Below, one piece after another: positions 1 through 10,656 of a stretch of DNA of 10,737 nt (position 1 is the first letter of the stretch; each line of letters starts with the position of its first letter). The position numbers and the translations under genes were made by a program. The stretch covers positions 1 through 10,737 of the forward strand of contig CAZUFC010000203.1 in the NCBI GenBank assembly GCA_964619725.1. The letters run 5' to 3'. This stretch comes from an uncultured bacterium (GTDB taxonomy: Bacteria; CSSED10-310; CAZUFC01). The notes beneath the pieces are model-generated. The model did not search any database. It saw only the letters and a list, made by a program, of their open reading frames with translations, and was not told where the DNA came from.

Positions 1-558
1 CCCACGATTCCTCCCACCGACACGCCGACCCTGACGCCGACCTTATCCCCCACCGAAACCGCCACCCTGACGCCGACTCTCTCTCCCACGGCAACATTGA
101 GTCCTACCGTCACCCTGACTCCCACTCATACTCTGTCGCCTACCGAATCTCCCACTTCGACGCCGACCGACAGCCCTACCTGTTCGCCCACGAGCGAACC
201 CACCGGTACGCCGACCGTCTCGCCCACGCATACTCTTTCACCCACAATCTCGCCCACTGCAACGCCGACAGACAGCCCTACCCATTCGCCCACGACAGAA
301 CCCACCGGGACGCCGACCGTCTCGCCGACGCATACTCTTTCGCCCACCGCCTCGACCACTGCAACGCCGACGAGCAGTCCTACCTCTTCGCCCACGACAG
401 AACCCTCCGATACGCCGACCTCCGGCCCCACGGCATCTCCTACGACTACTCCGACGCCTGCTCCCGTTCCTGCGCTGTCGGGAATCGGATTGACGGCGCT
501 GATCATGCTCTTCGGAATCATGCTTGCCAAAAAGCAATGTCGCATCAAGGAGCTGCTG
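1..558 (+). CDS. C-terminal part of a 5'-truncated surface protein: Pro/Thr/Ser-rich stalk followed by an IPTL-CTERM-like sorting/anchor segment. It has no stop codon and runs in frame into the next protein.
   Basis: Frame +1 is open from base 1 (PTIPPTDTPTLTPTLSPTETA...), so the TTG 'start' at 97 is a window artefact. The PT-rich tract to about 465 is followed by VPALSGIGLTALIMLFGIMLAKKQCRIK (466-549): [IV]PxLSxxGL motif, hydrophobic helix, basic tail. Confidence 0.75.
121..423 (+). repeat. Three tandem 102-bp (34-aa) intragenic repeats encoding the PT stalk
   Basis: Units start at 121, 223 and 325: PTHTLSPTESPTSTPTDSPTCSPTSEPTGTPTVS / PTHTLSPTISPTATPTDSPTHSPTTEPTGTPTVS / PTHTLSPTASTTATPTSSPTSSPTTEPSDTPTS. 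A shorter 36-bp duplication (accctgacgccgac at 28 and 64) lies upstream. Confidence 0.92.
547..552 (+). promoter_or_regulatory. Shine-Dalgarno site (AAGGAG) for an internal start at ATG 559/562
   Basis: AAGGAG-ctgctg-ATGATGAAAAAA: 6 or 9 nt spacing, directly ahead of a signal peptide. Confidence 0.75.
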
Positions 559-3500
559 ATGATGAAAAAATTTTTATCCCTCTTTTTAATGCTCGCAATA
601 CCGCTTTTACTGGCCTCCGGGGCAGCGGATGTCGCTTACGCTCAAACCGATTATTACGTCGATCAGTTGAACGGAGACGACGGAAACGACGGCCTGGCCT
701 GGGGAACGGCCAAGGCTTCAGTTCAAGCCGCGGTTGATATAGTCTCCCCACCAGCCTTAATTCACGTTGCGGAAGGGACCTACACGGAAAATGTAACCGT
801 CGGGGCCGACGATATTGCGATGATGGGCGGTTATCCCGAAGGCGGAGGCGCTCGTGATCCCGAAAGTTATATCAGCATAATCGACGGAAACGCTTCTGGC
901 GCCGCTCTGACCGTATCTAATTCCGTAAATTTTGAAGTCGACGGATTCACGATCAGAAACGGTTCAACCGCTTACGGAGGAGGTATTTCCCTCGATTCCT
1001 GCTCTTCCTGCGTTATCAGCAATTGCATCATAGAACAAAACGAAGCAGCGACAGCAGGAGCCGGCATAGCATGCTTGCAATCTTCCGTTACTCTGGAAAA
1101 CAACACTATCCAAAACAATACCGGAGCAGGCGCTGACCAAGGCGGCGGGATATTCGTATCCGAAAGCGACTTGACTGTGACGGCGAACATCATTCAGGAC
1201 AACAAAGTCACCGCTTCATCGGCCTTCGGAGGCGGATTGAGCATAGATTCCTACAGCATCGTCCTGATGAACGAAAATGAATTATTGAATAACTATTCAG
1301 TCGCTGACGGATCGCATGATACTCATTCAAGGGGCGGAGGCATTTATTGCCTGGGAGACTTGACGGTTACTGATTGTCTTTTCAGCGGCAATGAAGCCCA
1401 GTCGACTTTCAACGGGGGTTATAACGGCAATTTGCAGAAATATTCATACGGCGGAGCCGTTTTCTGCGGCGATGGAGGAATTGTCGTCTCCTCCGAAAAC
1501 GACTATTCCACAAACCAGGCATACGCATACATCATAAATACCTCCTCAAGCCGCAGAGCATACGCTTACAGTTACGGAGGCGCTTTGTATTGCGATGCCG
1601 ACGGATATATGGAGTCTGTCGGTGATTCCCTGCATGAAAACATCGCTTATGCCTACGGACAGGATACTGCTTCCAGCGGTCGGGGTTACGGCTATTCCTA
1701 CGGCGGCGCTCTTTATCTGGCTGACGGTTCTTCTGCATTGATCAGGGCAGGAGTCACAGTCGAAAATAATTCAGCGACTGCGCAGGGGTCCGGTTCCGGT
1801 TCTCGTGATTATGCCTATGTCTACGGCGGAGGAATATGCACGTGGGGTGCGACCGCCGACGTGACGATAGACGGTATCACGCTCAAAACCAATCATTTGA
1901 GCGCTACGCCAAACAACACCTCTCTCGGCGAAGGCATTTACGTCCGCGAAACGCCGCTCAATTTGTTCAATTCTTTCATCCACGATATTGAAAATGAAGC
2001 GGTTTATCTCTATTCCAGCGATGCTCAGATCATCCATTGTACCATTGTATACAACGACGGGTACGGCATTTACGCGGACGGAGGCATTCCCCTGGTCAGA
2101 AACTGCATCCTCTGGGGAAACAATGACGATCTGTATGGGCTCAGCGCAGAATATTCCGATATTCAAAGCGGAGATGCCGGACCGGGAAATCTCGATCCGC
2201 CATGCCCACCCATGTTCGCTGGAAACGGCGACTATCACATCCTGCCCGGATCATGCTGTATAGACCGCGGCTATCCTCTGGATATCCCAGACCATGATTT
2301 CGACGGCGATTACCGCCCTTACGCCTTCGGCATACCCGATATCGGCGCGGACGAAACCTCTTACGACAATCCTTCTCCTACTCCTTACGCGACTCCTTTC
2401 GGAACGCCATCTCCTGTTCCTACGCCGGCCAATGACTACTATGTCGATGGAGAACTCGGACAGGATTACAACGACGGTTTGAGCTGGAGCACGGCGAAAG
2501 AAACTCTGGGCGCAGCGTTGGCGGCGGCTGCAGCGAATGGAGGCGGCGCTGTTCACGTCGCAGCCTGGACCTATCATGAAAAAATCAATGCTTTCGATAA
2601 CCTGAGGTTATACGGCGGTTATCCAGCAGGCGGCGGACCCAGGGACCCTTCCGTCAACATTACGGTCATCGATGCCGATAATGAGGACACGCCGGTAAGA
2701 ATCGGCGCAGTATCAAACGTAGTCGTCGACGGTTTCGTCATCACCGGCGGAACCAGCGAATACGGCGGCGGAATTTACATAGGACATGCAAAACAGGTCG
2801 TCATCAACGGCAATACAATCACCCAAAACACAGCCGTTCACAACCCCGCGACGAACAATCTTGCTAGAGGCGGCGGAATTTACGCCATGGGAACCGATAT
2901 CCGGATCAGCGCCAACAAGATATCTTACAATGCGGTTACAGGAAGCGATGCATTAGGCGGAGGCATCTACTGTCCCAACGGCTACGATATAGTCATCAGC
3001 GGCAACACGCTGTCCTATAACACGTGCGAATACGCGGGCGGCGGATGCGCAATCACGAATCAGGATTCCCCTGTCGAAATTTACGATAATGTCTTTGAAT
3101 GGAACGAAGCGACAGGCGCAGAAGGTCGGGGCGGCGGCCTGTTCGTAGACGCCGGGGCAGAAGTCTCGGTTACGGACAATGAATTCAGGGACAACCGTGC
3201 CTCAAATTCCAACAACGTCAACTCAACGGTCAGCGGCGGCGGAATATATTGCGCAGGGCAAGCCGGCATCTCTGGGAACCTGTTCCTTAGAAACCAGAGC
3301 TACAATTACTTCAACTCCAGTTACGGAGACCACGCCTATCAATACGCATACGGCGGAGCATTGTTCTGTGCATCCGGAGGCATCCTTGAATCTTCGCTTA
3401 ATACATACCTTGAAAACCAGGCTTACAGTCACTCGGAAAACACAAGTTCGAGTCGCCGCGGATATGCTTACGGTTACGGAGCCGCAGCCTACTGCGACAG

Positions 3501-6500
3501 CGGCGGGAAACTGGTGATGTCCAACGACTCCATGATAGAAAACCTCTCTTACGCCTACGGAAAAGATACGGCAAGCAGCGGCCGGGGCTATGCCTATGCT
3601 CGCGGCGGAGCGCTTTATTGCACTGATGAGTCAGAAGTGACGATCGGCATCGGCAGCATCATCGAACACAATCTATGTCATGCCGAGGCATACGGCAGCA
3701 CCAGGAGGGCTTATACCTACGGCGGCGGCATTTATGTCACCGGAGCGGCTGCCAGTGTGCTTCTGGATGGATTGACGGTACGTAACAATTCCTTGTATGC
3801 TTCGCCCAACAACGCCTCCATCGGACACGGAATATACGTCAATTCCACCGCTGTGCAACTCTTCAATTCCTTTATTGTAGAGAATCCCGGTACAGGACTT
3901 TACCTGGAGGATTCCGATTCTTATATCGTGAACAACACTGTCGCGTACAATCTTAATAATGGAATCTACGGAGCCGGCGGAAGCGCGCCGCTCATCCGAA
4001 ACTGCATTCTTTGGGGCCATCCCGACGATCTGGTGAACGTAACCGCAACCTACAGCGACATACAGGGCGCTGACCCCGGCGAAGGCAACCTGGACCCGCC
4101 CTGTAATCCCGTTTTTATCGGAAACGGCGATTACCATCTGACAGAATACTCCTGCTGCATCGACAGAGGCAGCTTCGAAGGACACCTGGACCATGACGTG
4201 GACGGCGAACAAAGACCCTACGCTTTTGGAGTCCCTGATATCGGCGCTGATGAAGTTCCGGGAACTAATCCCACGCCGACGCCTTACGTCACTCCTTTCG
4301 GAACGCCTACCGTCGGTCCCAGCCCTACTCCTTCCATGGATTTCTACGTGGATGCGACAAACGGCGATGACGAAAATGACGGCCTTTCCTGGGGTTCAGC
4401 TAAAGCATCCATAAGCGCTTCGGTTAATCTGGCTGAAAGCGCCGGCGGCGGAAATGTTCACGTCGCCGAAGGACACTATACCGAAAACATCTTCTGCGTC
4501 AGCTACCTGACTCTTCTCGGAGGCTATCCCGAAGGCGGCGGGACACGCGATCCCGAGACGCATCTGACCGTTATCGACGGCGCTCACAGAGACACCGTTG
4601 TGAGAATACCCAGGGTCATCAACGTCACGATAGACGGGTTTATGATCGTAAACGGCAGAGGCGACTACGGCGGCGGATTCTATGTCGGACGGGCGCAGGA
4701 TATTCTCATCAGCAATAACCGGATTGAAAACAATTACTGCGTTGACGTGCCCTCTTCCCGCAACCTGGCCCTGGGCGGCGGTCTTTACATCCACGGCAAC
4801 AATATTCGCCTGATCGACAACACGATCATTGACAACTTCGTTGAAGGCGAGGAAGTGCTGGGCGGCGGCATCTATTGCGGCGGAGGCAGTAAAATACTGC
4901 TGGACGGCAATACGATCAGTTTCAACTATTCGGAAAATATAGGCGGCGGAATCTACGTAGCCGATTCAGAAAGTCCGGTAACCATGACCGGCAACCTCTT
5001 TGAAGGAAACATTGCAGAAAGCTCCAACGCAAAAGGAGGGGCTGTCTTTGTCGATTCCCCCGCATCAGTAGCGCTCGAAAACAACGATTTCATCAGCAAC
5101 AGCGTCGTATCTTCAAATATTGCCGATACGACGATGATGGGCGGAGCCGTCTATTGCTCAGGCGAAGCAGAGATAACCTCGAATCTGTTCCGGAACAATG
5201 AAAGCTACAACTACTATAACGGCAGCTATGGAAATTACCTCTATCAGTATTCTTACGGCGGAGCGCTCTACTGCGCAGAAGGCTGTTTGGTCAATTCTTC
5301 CGATAATGAATTCATCGAAAACAGCGTCCATGCTCATGCGGAAAACACTTCCAGCAGCCGGCGAGGCTATGCCTACGGTTACGGAGCGGCAATCTATTGC
5401 GATCAGGGTTCCAACCTCCAAATCCATAACGACATCTTAGCAAACAACATAGCCTATACTTACGCCAAAGATACGGCATCCAACGGACGCGGCTATGCCT
5501 ATTCTTACGGAGCCGCACTCTACTGCGATGACGGCGGCGCATTGACCGTCGGACGGGGAACGCTAATTGAAGAAAACCTCTGCGAGGCTTACAGTTACGC
5601 CAACAGCACCCGCAGCGCCTATGTCCGGGGCGGCGGACTCTACATAAACGGATCGAATGCCGATGTGCACATCAACAGCCTCATGCTGCGCTCAAACCAG
5701 ATGTACGCCGAACCAAACAGCGGGGCCGACGGATACGGACTCTACGTCAATTCAACGCCGCTGACGCTTTACAACACTTTTATAGTAGATCACCCCGGCA
5801 CAGCGATATACTTGAACAGCGCAGCCCCGACCATAGTCAACAATACCATCGCCGGCAACAGCGGATACGGAATATACGGCTCCTCAAGCGGCTCTGCCTT
5901 CATAAGAAACTGCCTCCTTTGGAACAACGACTACGATCTCAACGGACTGAATGCGGACTACAGCAATATTCAAAGCGGAACGACAGGCGAAGGTAACCTG
6001 ACGCCGCCCTGCAATCCCTCCTTTGTCGGAGACGGCGATTATCATCTACGACATTCCTCCTGTTGCATAGACAGAGGTACCAATAACTATGCGCCTATGG
6101 ATGATTTCGATGGAGATTACAGGCCTTTCGGTATGGGCAGAAACGATATTGGGGCAGACGAAACGAGTTATACGAACCCCACGCCTCCTCCCAGCGTGAC
6201 GCCTTATACTCCCACGCCCACAGGTTCTCCGACGCCGACGCCTGCATCCGAATATTATGTTGACCTGGTAAACGGCGATGACGAAAATGACGGACTGAGC
6301 TGGGCCACTGCCAAGGCGAGCATCACTGCAGCTTTGAATTCAGCGGTTTCGGGCGGTTTCATACGCACTGCAGAAGGAGAGTACAAAGAAAATATCCAGT
6401 TGTTGAGCGATATCACCCTGCTGGGCGGATACCCTTCAGGCGGCGGCGCAAGAGACCCGTCAGCCAATACGACGATAATCAACGGCAGGCATGACGATGC

Positions 6501-9159
6501 CGCCGTCATAATCAACAACGCTTCCAATACGACGATAGACGGTTTTGTGATCATCAACGGAAGGCAATACTACGGCGGAGGCATCTCATGTTACTCTTCC
6601 CGCCATGTCATCCTGCAAGACTGCATCATTGAATCCAATACAGCCGGTGAAAACGGCAACCTGGCCAGCGGCGGCGGAGCGTTCTTTGCTCATTGTTACG
6701 ATGTGCGGATAACAGGCAGCACGTTTCTGAACAACCAGGTCGTTGAAACGTCCGAAGGATACGGAGGAGCTTTGTACATCCATTCCTGCGGCCTGATGTC
6801 GGTCGATTCCTGTTCATTCGAATCGAACGCGGCGCCTTTCGCCGGAGGAGCAATAGCCTGCTTCGACGTCGACGATACGATTGTCATAAGCGATAATGAA
6901 TTCACAAAAAACCTGGCTTCCGGCAGCGGCACATCAGCGTCCATCCTGGGCGGCGCCGTATACTGCGCGGATGACGCATCGCCTGTCATATCTTCCAACA
7001 CGTTCACGGAAAATACCGCAGCCGTGACAGGCAGAGAAGCTATGGCTAAAGGCGGCGCCTTATTCCTGGACGGAGAGTCTCTTCTTTTCGAGAATAAATT
7101 CCTGGAAAATGAATCACATGCTGAAATTAATACATCCTACGGAAATAACCTGTACGTCTACTCCTACGGCGGCGCTCTTTTCGCCGGAGAAAACAGCGAC
7201 CTGACGGTCGATTCCAACTTTTTCCGTGACAATATCGCATACTCCTATTGTGAAAATACATCCGGCTCAAGGCGCGCTTACGCCTATTCCCACGGCGGCG
7301 GTATCTTTTGCGCCGCCGGCTCACAGACGGAAATCAGCATGTCCACCTTCCTCGAAAATACCGCCTACGCTTCCGCAAGAGAACAAGCCAGTTCGGGTCA
7401 TGCTTACGCTTACACCTATGGGGGAGCCGTTTACGTCGATGCCGATGCAAACGCGCTCATTCACGAATCAGCGCTCATAACCGACAATAAAGGCGAATCA
7501 TACGCATCAGGCAATTATAGGCAGCGGGGCTACTCCTACGGCGGAGGCGTTTATATCGCCGACGGAGCCGCAGACGTCACCGTTCACAGAGCGCTGATCG
7601 ACAACAACGATGCCTGGGGCAGTCCTGATCACTTCACCGTCGGCGACGGAATTTATATAAACTCCAACGACCCGGTGAGAGTTGTCGACTGTTTCATCAC
7701 CAATAACCAGGGTTACGGCATCTATTGTAATTCTTCGGGAGAAAACGTTAAAATCTATCACGACACCATAGCGGACAACACGAATTACGGAATATACAGA
7801 AATTCCGGCTCCCTGGAAATAACCAACTGCATTGTCTGGAACCATAACGACGACCTGTATGGAGTCGATGCCGTTCATTGCGCCCTCAGCGACGGCGATG
7901 CCGGAGAGGGCAACATCTCGGACGATCCCCAATTCGTAGGCAACAACGACTACCACATCCATGAAACCTCCCCATGCGTCAACGCCGGCACTTTCGTCAT
8001 GGAATTCGACCTCACCGACCAGGACTACGACGGACACGACAGGCCACTGGAAGGCGAATTCGACATAGGCGCTGATGAATTCTCAGGAGAACCCATCCTC
8101 AACCTGACAGTATTCGTAGACGGAATATATTCATCAGGCTCACAATTACCCGCACCGGTTGACATAGAACTGAGACAGGGCAGCTCTCCCGGCACAGCCG
8201 TCCACGTTTACGCCCGCATAGAAGACGTCCCTCTTGATGCGAACGGCAACACCGGCGATATGACCTTGACGGGTTACCAGGGCGGAGACTTTTACCTCTT
8301 CGTAGACCACAAGAACCATCTAAGCGTGATCACCCAGGAAAGACTGCACTTCACATACGTAGGCAAAACCACGGTAAACCTGTCTGACGAAACCAGTCCG
8401 AATTATAAAAAAGCATACGGATTCGAACCCATGAGCCCGGAAGCCGATGACATGCTGGCCATAAGAGGCGGAGACGCTGACGCTGACGGAGTAGTTAACG
8501 CCTCAGGCGACTTCGTAAAATGGCTCGTCGCCAACGGCAGCGTCCCCGCAGACCCCAACTGGGACGACCAGTGCGATTTTAATGACGACAATGTGGTTAA
8601 TTCCGCAGACTACTCCATATGGCTCAACCAGAACGGCAGAATCTCCTTCGTCCCGGACATCAACGATAAATCCGGCGCCGGAGAATATGAACTGAACATG
8701 AATGAATTGGAACTGAAAATAACGGAATACAGCGAATTGAACAACCAGGCTTTCATTACGGTAGAACTGATACTGAACGCGGAAACACCCGGAAAAATCC
8801 AGGCCGTAGATGCATTGATCGCCTACAATGAACAATACCTGGGACAACCAGTAAAAGAAAAAGATTACCTGCACCAGAACACAACCGATTTCTCAAGGGA
8901 AAACAATTACGACTGCAACGGAACAGCCTATCACTACAGCCGCGGCGCCATGCCAAATCAGGAAGGTTATAATGTCCGGAACGGAGAAAACAAGTTAATG
9001 AAACTGATCTTCCCCGTAAAAACGGTCCACCTGCAAAGCCTGACCGGCGTTAAAACGCCGCTCGGTCTAGTCCCCGGCATTACGGGTATTTCCCTGGAGG
9101 AACAGGAATCTCCGGAAATAATGAGAAACGTAGAAAAGGGGATCGATTGTTTAAGGTAA
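559..9159 (+). CDS. Large secreted multi-module right-handed parallel beta-helix protein (2866 aa from ATG 559) with a C-terminal dockerin-like region; probable adhesin or surface protein
   Basis: Signal peptide MMKKFLSLFLMLAIPLLLASGAADVAYA|QTD (AxA site, predicted cleavage after nt 642). Four homologous modules begin (D/E)(Y/F)YVDxxxGxDxNDGLxWxxAK, contain many GG(G/A)(I/L/V)(Y/F) and FxxN repeats, and end DYHxxxxSxCxxxG...DxDGxxRP...DIGADE. Stop TAA at 9157-9159. Confidence 0.88.
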   Translation: MMKKFLSLFLMLAIPLLLASGAADVAYAQTDYYVDQLNGDDGNDGLAWGTAKASVQAAVDIVSPPALIHVAEGTYTENVTVGADDIAMMGGYPEGGGARDPESYISIIDGNASGAALTVSNSVNFEVDGFTIRNGSTAYGGGISLDSCSSCVISNCIIEQNEAATAGAGIACLQSSVTLENNTIQNNTGAGADQGGGIFVSESDLTVTANIIQDNKVTASSAFGGGLSIDSYSIVLMNENELLNNYSVADGSHDTHSRGGGIYCLGDLTVTDCLFSGNEAQSTFNGGYNGNLQKYSYGGAVFCGDGGIVVSSENDYSTNQAYAYIINTSSSRRAYAYSYGGALYCDADGYMESVGDSLHENIAYAYGQDTASSGRGYGYSYGGALYLADGSSALIRAGVTVENNSATAQGSGSGSRDYAYVYGGGICTWGATADVTIDGITLKTNHLSATPNNTSLGEGIYVRETPLNLFNSFIHDIENEAVYLYSSDAQIIHCTIVYNDGYGIYADGGIPLVRNCILWGNNDDLYGLSAEYSDIQSGDAGPGNLDPPCPPMFAGNGDYHILPGSCCIDRGYPLDIPDHDFDGDYRPYAFGIPDIGADETSYDNPSPTPYATPFGTPSPVPTPANDYYVDGELGQDYNDGLSWSTAKETLGAALAAAAANGGGAVHVAAWTYHEKINAFDNLRLYGGYPAGGGPRDPSVNITVIDADNEDTPVRIGAVSNVVVDGFVITGGTSEYGGGIYIGHAKQVVINGNTITQNTAVHNPATNNLARGGGIYAMGTDIRISANKISYNAVTGSDALGGGIYCPNGYDIVISGNTLSYNTCEYAGGGCAITNQDSPVEIYDNVFEWNEATGAEGRGGGLFVDAGAEVSVTDNEFRDNRASNSNNVNSTVSGGGIYCAGQAGISGNLFLRNQSYNYFNSSYGDHAYQYAYGGALFCASGGILESSLNTYLENQAYSHSENTSSSRRGYAYGYGAAAYCDSGGKLVMSNDSMIENLSYAYGKDTASSGRGYAYARGGALYCTDESEVTIGIGSIIEHNLCHAEAYGSTRRAYTYGGGIYVTGAAASVLLDGLTVRNNSLYASPNNASIGHGIYVNSTAVQLFNSFIVENPGTGLYLEDSDSYIVNNTVAYNLNNGIYGAGGSAPLIRNCILWGHPDDLVNVTATYSDIQGADPGEGNLDPPCNPVFIGNGDYHLTEYSCCIDRGSFEGHLDHDVDGEQRPYAFGVPDIGADEVPGTNPTPTPYVTPFGTPTVGPSPTPSMDFYVDATNGDDENDGLSWGSAKASISASVNLAESAGGGNVHVAEGHYTENIFCVSYLTLLGGYPEGGGTRDPETHLTVIDGAHRDTVVRIPRVINVTIDGFMIVNGRGDYGGGFYVGRAQDILISNNRIENNYCVDVPSSRNLALGGGLYIHGNNIRLIDNTIIDNFVEGEEVLGGGIYCGGGSKILLDGNTISFNYSENIGGGIYVADSESPVTMTGNLFEGNIAESSNAKGGAVFVDSPASVALENNDFISNSVVSSNIADTTMMGGAVYCSGEAEITSNLFRNNESYNYYNGSYGNYLYQYSYGGALYCAEGCLVNSSDNEFIENSVHAHAENTSSSRRGYAYGYGAAIYCDQGSNLQIHNDILANNIAYTYAKDTASNGRGYAYSYGAALYCDDGGALTVGRGTLIEENLCEAYSYANSTRSAYVRGGGLYINGSNADVHINSLMLRSNQMYAEPNSGADGYGLYVNSTPLTLYNTFIVDHPGTAIYLNSAAPTIVNNTIAGNSGYGIYGSSSGSAFIRNCLLWNNDYDLNGLNADYSNIQSGTTGEGNLTPPCNPSFVGDGDYHLRHSSCCIDRGTNNYAPMDDFDGDYRPFGMGRNDIGADETSYTNPTPPPSVTPYTPTPTGSPTPTPASEYYVDLVNGDDENDGLSWATAKASITAALNSAVSGGFIRTAEGEYKENIQLLSDITLLGGYPSGGGARDPSANTTIINGRHDDAAVIINNASNTTIDGFVIINGRQYYGGGISCYSSRHVILQDCIIESNTAGENGNLASGGGAFFAHCYDVRITGSTFLNNQVVETSEGYGGALYIHSCGLMSVDSCSFESNAAPFAGGAIACFDVDDTIVISDNEFTKNLASGSGTSASILGGAVYCADDASPVISSNTFTENTAAVTGREAMAKGGALFLDGESLLFENKFLENESHAEINTSYGNNLYVYSYGGALFAGENSDLTVDSNFFRDNIAYSYCENTSGSRRAYAYSHGGGIFCAAGSQTEISMSTFLENTAYASAREQASSGHAYAYTYGGAVYVDADANALIHESALITDNKGESYASGNYRQRGYSYGGGVYIADGAADVTVHRALIDNNDAWGSPDHFTVGDGIYINSNDPVRVVDCFITNNQGYGIYCNSSGENVKIYHDTIADNTNYGIYRNSGSLEITNCIVWNHNDDLYGVDAVHCALSDGDAGEGNISDDPQFVGNNDYHIHETSPCVNAGTFVMEFDLTDQDYDGHDRPLEGEFDIGADEFSGEPILNLTVFVDGIYSSGSQLPAPVDIELRQGSSPGTAVHVYARIEDVPLDANGNTGDMTLTGYQGGDFYLFVDHKNHLSVITQERLHFTYVGKTTVNLSDETSPNYKKAYGFEPMSPEADDMLAIRGGDADADGVVNASGDFVKWLVANGSVPADPNWDDQCDFNDDNVVNSADYSIWLNQNGRISFVPDINDKSGAGEYELNMNELELKITEYSELNNQAFITVELILNAETPGKIQAVDALIAYNEQYLGQPVKEKDYLHQNTTDFSRENNYDCNGTAYHYSRGAMPNQEGYNVRNGENKLMKLIFPVKTVHLQSLTGVKTPLGLVPGITGISLEEQESPEIMRNVEKGIDCLR
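649..2355 (+). repeat. Beta-helix module 1 (569 aa)
   Basis: DYYVDQLNGDDGNDGLAWGTAK ... IHVAEGTYTE ... GGYP ... DIGADE; followed by a PT linker (NPSPTPYATPFGTPSPVPTP). Confidence 0.85.
2434..4254 (+). repeat. Beta-helix module 2 (607 aa)
   Basis: DYYVDGELGQDYNDGLSWSTAK ... DIGADE; followed by the linker NPTPTPYVTPFGTPTVGPSPTPS. Confidence 0.85.
4339..6162 (+). repeat. Beta-helix module 3 (608 aa)
   Basis: DFYVDATNGDDENDGLSWGSAK ... DIGADE; followed by the linker NPTPPPSVTPYTPTPTGSPTPTPAS. Confidence 0.85.
6250..8079 (+). repeat. Beta-helix module 4 (610 aa)
   Basis: EYYVDLVNGDDENDGLSWATAK ... DIGADE; no PT linker follows it. Confidence 0.85.
8470..8637 (+). other. Dockerin-like domain (duplicated Ca-binding loop-helix) within the large CDS
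   Basis: GDADADGVVNASGDFVKWL ... CDFNDDNVVNSADYSIWL: two DxN/DxDxxVNxxD loops, each followed by an amphipathic helix. Confidence 0.72.
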
Positions 9160-9176: not shown

Positions 9177-9205
9177 AAAAAAGGGGGGAGTGATATCCCC
9201 CTTAT
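9177..9205. terminator. Intrinsic terminator-like hairpin between the convergent genes; better U-tract on the minus strand
   Basis: Stem GGGGGA (9184-9189) / TCCCCC (9196-9201) with loop GTGATA. The A6 run at 9177-9182 gives U6 on the minus strand; only TTAT follows on the plus strand. It starts 18 nt after the TAA stop. Confidence 0.6.
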
Positions 9206-9412
9206 AAAACTGAACCTTACTCACAATTGTCTGTTTGACGAATTCACCGCTGCTTGTTTCATCCAGAGCCATTTATTTCGACATCGGGGTCGGGATCGGG
9301 AGCGGAATACGTAATTGGGCATTGATCAAAAGCGCACATTTCGAGATTACAATTCGGCGCTGAATTGATTCGGATTATTCCCGAACTGCTATTCCTCCCA
9401 TTAAGCAGCCGA

Positions 9413-9578
9413 AAAGGGGAATTTACTGCGCTCCTTCAGAGCTTTCATTTTTTCTTGTCTGACCCAGGGTTGCGCTCCGCTTCGCTTCGCTTAACCCTGG
9501 GCTTTCGTACACCGCTCCTTCGGAGCTTAAGAGGTTTTTAGATCAATCCAAATTGTAAGACCCATTTGATCAGTCCCA
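9413..9578 (+). repeat. Composite REP/MITE-like element, left (long) copy
   Basis: Direct repeats CGCTCCTTCAGAGCTT (9429-9444) and CGCTCCTTCGGAGCTT (9513-9528, hairpin GCTCC-TTC-GGAGC) flank a 9-bp stem CCCAGGGTT (9463-9471) / AACCCTGGG (9493-9501). Both outer flanks recur in inverted orientation at 10575-10656. Confidence 0.8.
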
Positions 9579-9668
9579 AAAAATCAGCCGGCGGTTGGGG
9601 ATAGTCTTTTTATTTTGTCTTACTTTGCTTTGCCCTTATCCGTCAGGGGCGGCAGAAAAATCTTCGGA

Positions 9669-9794: not shown

Positions 9795-10445
9795 TCAATC
9801 CTCTTTTCGACATAAAATTCGATAAGCTCTGATAACGTCGGACGGAAACGGTTCGTATAAAATATCGCCCTTCTTTGCATACAATTCTATACGCTTAATT
9901 TCACCCAGCAGCGTTCTCATAAATGGAATGCCCTTCGACTCAAAAAGCTCTTTTTCCTTTTCAAAACCGGTAACCGGCGGAGCATTAAACACTTTAATTT
10001 CCGGCAAATGCTTGCGGAACGTCAGGTTCACTCGCCGTTGCCGGTAGGCATTTGCCGTCAGTATCGCGGTCTTGACGTTTTTATGCTTTTTCATTGCATT
10101 CAGGATTTTTTTCACCTTAATGACGTTTTCCAGCGTATTCTTTGATTCCTTCTCGATTACTACTTTTTCATCAGGAATCTCGGGAAACTTCCTTTTTAAT
10201 TCCTCCTGAAAAGCTATAGCCTCTTCTTTTCCAAGGTCTCCAGTGCCGGCGCCGATACCGCCTGTAAAAATTATGCACTCCGTCTTCCCCTCCTGCAAAA
10301 GCTCACCGCACCGCCTGGGAACCTTTAAATCAAAATGACCGAATCCTATCACTGCGTCTGAACGACATATTTTTTCTGACCTTTCATAAAGATAATTGAA
10401 TATCACTTTTGCCGAACTGTTTTCATCATTTCTGGAAATACTCAC
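9795..10445 (-). CDS. YdcF / DUF218 (ElyC/SanA/YdcF) family protein, 216 aa from the probable GTG start
   Basis: Motifs DAVIGFG, IIFTGGIG, EEAIAF, VVIEKESKNTLENV and ILTANAYRQRRV fit the DUF218 pattern. AAGGAGG (complement of 10455-10461) lies 9 nt before GTG at 10445, whereas ATG 10553 has no SD. Stop TGA at 9795-9797. Confidence 0.85.
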   Translation of the reverse strand: MSISRNDENSSAKVIFNYLYERSEKICRSDAVIGFGHFDLKVPRRCGELLQEGKTECIIFTGGIGAGTGDLGKEEAIAFQEELKRKFPEIPDEKVVIEKESKNTLENVIKVKKILNAMKKHKNVKTAILTANAYRQRRVNLTFRKHLPEIKVFNAPPVTGFEKEKELFESKGIPFMRTLLGEIKRIELYAKKGDILYEPFPSDVIRAYRILCRKED

Positions 10446-10454
10446 TGGTCTGCC

Positions 10455-10461
10455 CCTCCTT
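10455..10461 (-). promoter_or_regulatory. Shine-Dalgarno AAGGAGG for the DUF218 gene
   Basis: Minus strand: AAGGAGG-ggcagacca-GTG agt att tcc. Confidence 0.75.
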
Positions 10462-10574
10462 GTAATAAAATCAGCATAAAAAAATGTGCTGTTTGCAGCG
10501 CTCTCAAATCCCTCCATCAGTCGGCATGCACAATAGGATAAGCTTCTTTTCATTAATTTTCAATATATCGATTA

Positions 10575-10656
10575 TGGGACTGATCAAACGGGAATTACAA
10601 TTTGGATCGATCCAAAAATCTCTTAAGCTCCGAAGGAACGCAGTAAATTACCGTTT
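10575..10656 (-). repeat. REP/MITE-like element, right (short, inverted) copy
   Basis: 10575-10640 is the reverse complement of 9513-9578 with 7 mismatches in 66 and no gaps. 10641-10656 is the reverse complement of 9413-9428 at 14/16. Confidence 0.85.

Follow-up and report, generated by a model that had tools for sequence, protein, structure and literature searches.

Bacterial protein export almost always proceeds one gene and one signal peptide at a time. Can a single open reading frame (ORF) deliver two exported proteins, and where would such a chain be cut? The question is raised by contig CAZUFC010000203.1 (hereafter C203) of G000, a 9.17-Mb metagenome bin in 344 contigs with a completeness of 90.9% and a contamination of 6.5%. 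The window, i.e., the whole stretch of DNA analysed here, is the entire contig of 10,737 bases. Its frame 1 is free of stop codons from base 1 to the TAA at 9157-9159 (3,052 codons in the translation), and leads from the sorting signal of one exported protein straight into the signal peptide of another. We conclude that the segment 451-645 is a genuine in-frame hairpin, a sorting signal followed by a signal peptide, which joins two exported proteins in one ORF.

Sorting signal and signal peptide in a single frame

Frame 1 encodes, in this order, a PT-rich stalk, a PxPVPA..G motif, a hydrophobic helix, a basic loop, a signal peptide ending AYA/Q (the slash marks the predicted cut here and below), and a beta-helix protein of 2,838 amino acids (aa). 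Across the joint it reads PTPAPVPALSGIGLTALIMLFGIMLAKKQCRIKELLMMKKFLSLFLMLAIPLLLASGAADVAYAQTDYYVD. All features of this chain are on the forward strand. The stalk (1-450) is apparent from the translation and matches the Pfam PT repeat with 21.3 bits, the cut-off being 26.2. It is truncated at the 5' end of the contig. Since the window is the whole of C203, the upstream protein is present here without its N-terminal part, and its signal peptide and folded domain lie outside the window. The stalk is followed by the sorting-signal motif PTPAPVPALSG (451-483; pattern PxP[VI]P[AST]...G) and by the 15 residues of hydrophobic helix 1 (484-528; IGLTALIMLFGIMLA), which we read as N-out/C-in. The basic loop (529-570; KKQCRIKELLMMKK) carries six Lys/Arg and one Glu and is predicted from the translation and the hydropathy to be cytoplasmic. 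It contains a Shine-Dalgarno-like (SD) sequence, AAGGAG (547-552), located 6 nucleotides (nt) 5' of ATG 559. This is the first of two in-frame ATG codons (559 and 562, together 559-564) that, to judge from the stand-alone paralogs described below, are the ancestral start of the beta-helix protein.

Helix 2 fits the layout of a Sec signal peptide, with an MMKK n-region, the h-region FLSLFLMLAIPLLLASGAA, and the c-region DVAYA/Q with small residues at -3 and -1. The segment 571-642, which holds the h- and c-regions, is translated as FLSLFLMLAIPLLLASGAADVAYA. The predicted signal peptidase I (SPase I) site falls between 642 and 643, and the mature protein, which begins QTDYYVD, occupies 643-9159 with its stop codon. 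The Kyte-Doolittle profile (15-residue window) shows two hydrophobic peaks, of 2.49 in helix 1 and 2.65 in helix 2, around a charged trough of -0.72. The first-pass annotation of this DNA had described a joint without stop codon and an AAGGAG before ATG 559, and every detail of this description is confirmed. The first ten residues of the loop (KKQCRIKELL) have the usual length of the basic tail that precedes the stop codon in 173 ordinary sorting signals of the genome. From the codons, the residues KE within them are evidently the former ribosome-binding site read as protein.

Is the motif upstream of the joint a sorting signal of this genome? A strict motif pattern matched 39 times in G000, and 35 of these matches end 28-39 residues past the start of the motif. 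We used 43 C-terminal examples chosen with this pattern to build a hidden Markov model (HMM) of the sorting domain, with a hit threshold of 12 bits. Its Pro and Gly columns are invariant by construction, because the examples were picked with the strict pattern. The model gave 180 hits at or above the threshold, of which 173 end 0-26 residues before the stop codon and seven are internal. The C203 anchor scores 36.3 bits and has the tripartite organisation expected of such signals (PAPVPALSG, IGLTALIMLFGIMLA, and KK..R.K). After it, 2,875 more residues follow in frame, which means that it is not at the extreme C-terminus. The first-pass annotation had suggested scanning genomes for an internal sorting motif followed by a signal peptide. 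In G000, six of the seven internal hits (C203, C171, C64, C10, C155, and C226) have a second hydrophobic stretch within 5-14 residues, ending in small-x-small. The remaining hit (C59), in a multi-pass membrane protein, is apparently a false positive. The pattern exceeds chance expectation.

The anchor had been likened to the IPTL-CTERM type. The layout agrees with this, but the curated model does not: IPTL-CTERM (TIGR04174, cut-off 20.5 bits) has no match in 400-558 at E≤10. Over the whole of G000 the model gave nine hits at E≤1, of which two were above the cut-off (22.2 and 20.8 bits) and none was at C203. The genome has a single exosortase gene, on contig C134, which matches TIGR04178 with 65.7 bits (cut-off 23), XrtH with 76.6 bits (cut-off 86), and archaeosortase B with 78.2 bits (cut-off 150). 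The about 180 sorting signals of G000 share this one gene. We compared 14 genomes of the candidate phylum, with G000 as the source genome and others such as G003, G006, G007, G008, and G012. An XrtH-like gene is present in all 14, and scores above the XrtH cut-off in two. The C203 anchor belongs to a relative of IPTL-CTERM that is specific to this lineage and for which the XrtH-like enzyme is the likely exosortase.

The protein downstream of the joint consists of four right-handed beta-helix modules of ~640 aa, starting near 643, 2431, 4333, and 6247, and ends in a tail of ~500 aa without a sorting signal. It matches the Pfam families Beta_helix (PF13229; 215.7 bits, cut-off 25.9) and NosD (83.4 bits), and, in four stretches, the NCBIfam family choice_anch_Q (NF041518; 70.7 bits, cut-off 25). 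An impression that the C-terminal tail might be a dockerin or cohesin was dropped, as no Pfam family matched 7900-9156 at E≤0.01. G000 encodes at least nine paralogs of this ~2,900-aa four-module protein, seven of which are stand-alone genes beginning at the aligned Met (C93, C215, C81, C19, C42, C106, and C216). All seven have in-frame stop codons 5-32 codons upstream and an SD-like AGGAGG, GGAGG or AAGGAG a few nt before the ATG. Their N-terminal signal peptides align with residues 187-214 of C203 and end with A or G before Q-[ST]-DYYVD or a close variant. Hence, helix 2 is a true signal peptide, since it is homologous to the N-terminal signal peptides of the seven stand-alone paralogs. None of the beta-helix paralogs has a sorting signal at its C-terminus. 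Five of the stand-alone paralogs have enough upstream sequence to look for a neighbour with a sorting signal on the same strand; it is found for C19 and C106, and not for C93, C81, and C42. Two out of five are too few to call a conserved anchor/beta-helix gene pair.

These features suggest how two proteins might be exported from one chain. A ribosome translating the upstream gene would continue through the joint and make the beta-helix protein as well. In the course of Sec translocation, helix 1 would stop the transfer (N-out, C-in), the basic loop would be left in the cytoplasm, and helix 2 would act as an internal signal peptide restarting export (N-in, C-out). SPase I is predicted to cut after AYA, which would free the 2,838-aa protein, and the single XrtH-like exosortase is predicted to cut the upstream protein at the PVPA motif, leading to its attachment to the surface. 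The leftover hairpin peptide, of about 55 residues, would be degraded. An independent start at 559 is also possible because AAGGAG and ATG are retained, and would give the beta-helix protein alone. The first-pass annotation had proposed a topologically coherent polyprotein with such an optional start, a proposal that gains support from the conservation of the joint in unrelated families, including orthologs that have no Met from the end of helix 1 to the predicted cut, and from the aligned signal peptides. It had the upstream protein simply left anchored in the membrane, whereas an XrtH-like exosortase would be expected to cut it. For C203 itself we lean, by a little, towards this Sec-threaded polyprotein with predicted exosortase and SPase I cuts and optional internal initiation.

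Independent contigs and the age of the fusion

Could the open frame be an artefact, either because the assembly joined unrelated sequences at the PT repeat or because a wrong base or an indel masks a stop codon? Two points favour this: the source is a metagenome bin, with the number of contigs and the contamination given above, and C203 and its paralog C171 both break at the same base inside the repeat. But the Logan contigs of two samples of the same study span the joint with 0 differences and no indel listed: that of run X1, which may be the source sample, extends over 225-658, and that of run X2, the second sample, over 513-903. Besides, about 90 nt separate the end of the repeat from the joint, and one unitig (225-658) holds the repeat and the sorting signal contiguously. 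C171, which is 78.4% identical to C203 over 9,083 aligned nucleotide columns, has its joint open in the same frame with different bases, AAGAAG replacing the AAAAAG of C203. A sequencing error or hidden 1-nt indel, raised in the first-pass annotation as a way of hiding a stop codon, is excluded because the two samples are identical and C171 is open with different bases. An artefact of any kind is very improbable.

The comparison with C171 also bears on a programmed +1 frameshift at the CCAAAAAGC run, by which the upstream protein would end at the TGA 557-559, overlapping ATG 559. A run of five A is indeed present at 529-533, and three +1-frame TGA codons at 557-565 overlap the ATGs. However, AAGAAG in C171 leaves no run while the arrangement is unchanged, and KKQCRIKELL, read in the 0 frame, is closer to a typical basic tail. 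No stimulatory element was noticed, although no search was aimed at one. We give this explanation almost no credence. A one-base shift of the upstream frame would nevertheless give CTGATGATGA at 557-565, with its three +1-frame TGA codons overlapping both ATGs, the classical TGATG layout of coupled genes.

How old is the fusion? AAGGAG and ATG are identical in the joints of C203 and C171. Since both elements survive inside both joints, the fusion looks young, and the C203/C171 joint would be a recent case of the design. In other proteins of the phylum, the design is both older and obligatory. A young fusion may also be selectively neutral. It would have arisen by stop loss or deletion, the useful protein would be made from the internal SD and ATG 559, and the read-through product would be tolerated or degraded. 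The loss of a stop codon beside the ATG is a small step because KKQCRIKELL has a normal tail length.

Several observations favour such a neutral fusion or otherwise weigh against a polyprotein in C203. Seven of the nine paralogs are stand-alone, and with SD and ATG intact internal initiation alone could supply the protein. Counted among identical residues, the synonymous differences between C203 and C171 amount to 0-0.08 for codons 1-80, to 0.14-0.20 for codons 81-240, where the joint lies, and to ~0.40 overall. The joint is thus far less diverged than the gene body, so that little time has tested the open frame, and C203 and C171 are non-independent witnesses of it. We found the C203-type joint in no other genome. 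In a phmmer search of 1.84 billion representatives, which gives the best stretch per hit, the 150 top-scoring of 443 hits include no protein whose best stretch reaches the anchor, and each of the 52 hits of a word search spans at most 68% of the region. On this contig the upstream protein lacks its N-terminal part and with it its own signal peptide. The runs listed for the stretch include no RNA run, and run X3 gave no contig matching it. Finally, the anchor is below every curated cut-off (17.8 vs 45 bits for midcut_by_XrtH and no hit for IPTL-CTERM), and the exosortase is below that of XrtH.

Other observations speak against neutrality. If the read-through were useless, each ribosome finishing the upstream gene would read 2,866 further codons, which is a heavy cost. 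The changes between C203 and C171 are conservative in both helices, and those of helix 1 are M>L, L>F, G>C, and A>V. Lastly, three other families have kept the joint over a long time, and in these a start inside the chain is unlikely. On balance, we regard a neutral fusion as unlikely, if worth keeping in mind, and retain the polyprotein as the preferred reading of C203.

The region upstream of the joint gives the impression of having been homogenised, or shared recently, between the two copies. The PT-stalk region 1-317 is 96.5% identical to positions 15444-15128 of C171, compared with 78% for the gene body, and both contigs break at the same base. This suggests either gene conversion or shared upstream sequence that the assembler failed to resolve. 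Apart from C171, no contig of the genome has even the first 15 bases of C203. PT-coding repeats are also found at the broken ends of seven other contigs (C1, C54, C70, C74, C104, C156, and C192), none of which could be assigned as the upstream partner of C203.

The same joint in other protein families of the phylum

The design is best displayed by a protein of G006 (contig C9, 178 kb). This chain of 1,460 aa has a first signal peptide, PKD-type repeats, IPIPTL..G, a helix, the basic loop RVCRNRIRIR, a signal-peptide-like segment ending GFA/QT, and a beta-helix domain, and closes with a C-terminal sorting signal of its own. A protein of another genus (G012:C104) keeps this layout, with 59% identity across the joint and no stop codon. 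In a collection of 5.8 billion proteins, seven proteins of this type span the whole 251-aa junction, with 53-63% identity. All seven keep the motif, the helix, the basic loop, the second helix, and small-x-A/Q, and four of them have no Met from the end of helix 1 to the predicted cleavage site. The sequence of the hairpin drifts in this family while all its features stay. The second half of the G006 protein occurs as a stand-alone protein in G003:C83 and G008:C115, where its start (MRRIIAIGIL...HA/QT) aligns to the internal signal peptide. For the class of proteins represented by this family, these sequence comparisons make export as a polyprotein likely.

The second family is represented in G000 by C64, which has a signal peptide, an LTD domain, PEPVPAAGKAG, a helix, KSTRR, VSIINLILFSISATVAHSVKA with the predicted cut before EF, and the Phosphodiest and BNR_2 domains. 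The joint is also present, at 44% identity, in a protein from another taxonomic family (G007:C15), where it is free of stop codons and where no Met precedes helix 2 after the basic loop. A word search for the C64 joint found the query and nothing else. G003:C35 and G008:C13 have a hydrophilic linker that connects the LTD half with the phosphodiesterase half in one chain, so that cutting is not needed for a protein of this type, which is another point against the polyprotein reading. The LTD-phosphodiesterase-BNR protein thus has a hydrophilic linker in one taxonomic family and a hairpin in two others, and we deduce from these two states that the hairpin was gained or lost within one protein.

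Might the hairpin, then, be left uncut on one or both sides? It would be a two-helix anchor in the inner membrane, with both large domains outside as parts of one protein. The topology is equally coherent without cleavage, and in the two genomes with the linker the C64-type protein functions with both halves in a single chain. But two elements stay constant in a hairpin that otherwise drifts, namely the exosortase motif (PxP[VI]P..G or IPIPTL..G) and the small-x-small site, and helix 2 aligns with the cleavable N-terminal signal peptides of stand-alone relatives. Furthermore, helix 1 has merely 13-15 residues past the Gly, like the C-terminal sorting signals that are cleaved. An uncut anchor therefore seems improbable to us, and the preferred reading remains a polyprotein cut at both sites.

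A third group consists of small CarboxypepD_reg proteins that have the hairpin after a short N-terminal piece. They are encoded in G000 by C10 (17419-18741), C155 (14853-16145), and C226 (1477-1920), and in G012 by C315 and C301. In these proteins the hairpin sits inside the CarboxypepD_reg-like domain, past its first strands. Their downstream parts vary, e.g., a fibrinogen-like GGGWT domain in C10 and an FGE-sulfatase domain in G012:C315. This small family resembles midcut-by-XrtH of NCBIfam. When we searched the 14 genomes with an HMM of the junction, the only full-length stop-free matches were its own four seeds, and for this reason the count is circular. The nearest genomes available for comparison are from the same phylum only.

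Taken across families, the hairpin might be a portable two-helix cassette of the phylum, by which two exported proteins are made as one chain, with the exosortase cutting on one side and SPase I on the other, giving an anchored and a released partner 1:1 at the same translocon. C203 and C171 would then show its birth from adjacent genes. We put this forward tentatively, as an idea with slightly less than an even chance. If the hairpins are cut as predicted, they would provide a general route to two exported proteins from one chain, in the form of a compact cassette of about 65 residues. Exosortases would then act on internal signals of large cargo proteins, beyond one small curated family. Three things are new here: the hairpin links large cargo proteins that are independent of each other, it recurs in several families within a single candidate phylum, and one copy still betrays its origin from two genes.

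Relation to known systems, annotation, and other features of the window

A curated precedent for a sorting signal in the middle of a protein exists, the NCBIfam family midcut-by-XrtH (NF033207). As inferred from the position of the profile alignments, this family also has an exosortase-type signal mid-protein and then a second hydrophobic segment. Its alignments extend across both helices in G006:C9 (31.6 bits, profile positions 26-124) and in C171 (18.3 bits, profile positions 28-94). None of the 14 genomes reaches its cut-off of 45 bits, the best score being that of G006:C9; the C203 anchor scores 17.8 bits. The phylum genomes carry an XrtH-like exosortase, that of G000 scoring 76.6 bits against a cut-off of 86. 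The curated family is a small protein (the profile has 175 positions), whereas the cargo here reaches 2,838 aa and C203 has an internal SD and ATG. A literature search found, among the matches listed, no paper on the midcut-by-XrtH family and no relevant paper joining an exosortase with a polyprotein; one paper mentions IPTL-CTERM and one exosortase H, and the myxosortase preprint does not mention internal signals.

The C203 anchor shares with IPTL-CTERM (TIGR04174) and its exosortase H (TIGR04177) the tripartite organisation in motif, helix, and basic cluster, and XrtH is the best bacterial match of the G000 exosortase. Unlike IPTL-CTERM, the anchor misses the model, has PxPVPA..G instead of IPTL, and is not C-terminal. 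The enzyme differs as well, as it is below the XrtH cut-off (76.6 vs 86 bits) and scores about equally with archaeosortase B (78.2 bits). A predicted IPTL-CTERM is reported for the S-layer protein of Methylomirabilis in an excerpt of PMC8671808. In sum, C203 fails the score tests for both curated families, IPTL-CTERM and midcut-by-XrtH, yet would work like them.

Two more distant systems share parts of the design. The FbcH precursor of cytochromes b and c1 in Bradyrhizobium, reportedly described by Thony-Meyer and colleagues around 1991, is said to give two proteins from one ORF, signal peptidase cutting at an internal signal peptide located behind a membrane helix. It yields an integral membrane protein as its first product and does without a sortase-type enzyme, whereas the first product of C203 is exported with a predicted cleavable sorting signal. 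The envelope polyproteins of viruses (prM-E of flaviviruses, the M segment of bunyaviruses) have the same hairpin topology: the membrane anchor of an ectodomain is followed by the next signal sequence, which is cut by signal peptidase. They differ in being encoded by viral genes, in using the eukaryotic endoplasmic reticulum, and in having no exosortase-like second cut.

Automatic annotation deals inconsistently with such joints, which hides their two-product nature. It had been expected that gene callers would merge the two proteins of C203. Instead, the public gene call is a protein of 2,879 aa that starts at Met174 (520-522), inside the anchor helix, so that the halves are neither merged nor cleanly split. 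In G006, the public call takes the whole 1,460-aa chain as a single beta-helix protein.

The remainder of the window contains a dispersed repeat of about 180 nt (9401-9585 and 10572-10656), which gave 44 BLAST rows across the genome and has copies that also adjoin the stand-alone C42 paralog and the hairpin gene of C10. Inverted arms of 74 nt (9508-9581 and 10572-10645), 86% complementary, flank a DUF218 gene on the minus strand (9795-10553). This arrangement could be an element resembling a miniature inverted-repeat transposable element (MITE). A GC-rich hairpin (GGGGGA...TCCCCC) is found at 9184-9201, 25 nt past the stop codon of the beta-helix protein, and has a terminator-like score on the minus strand only.

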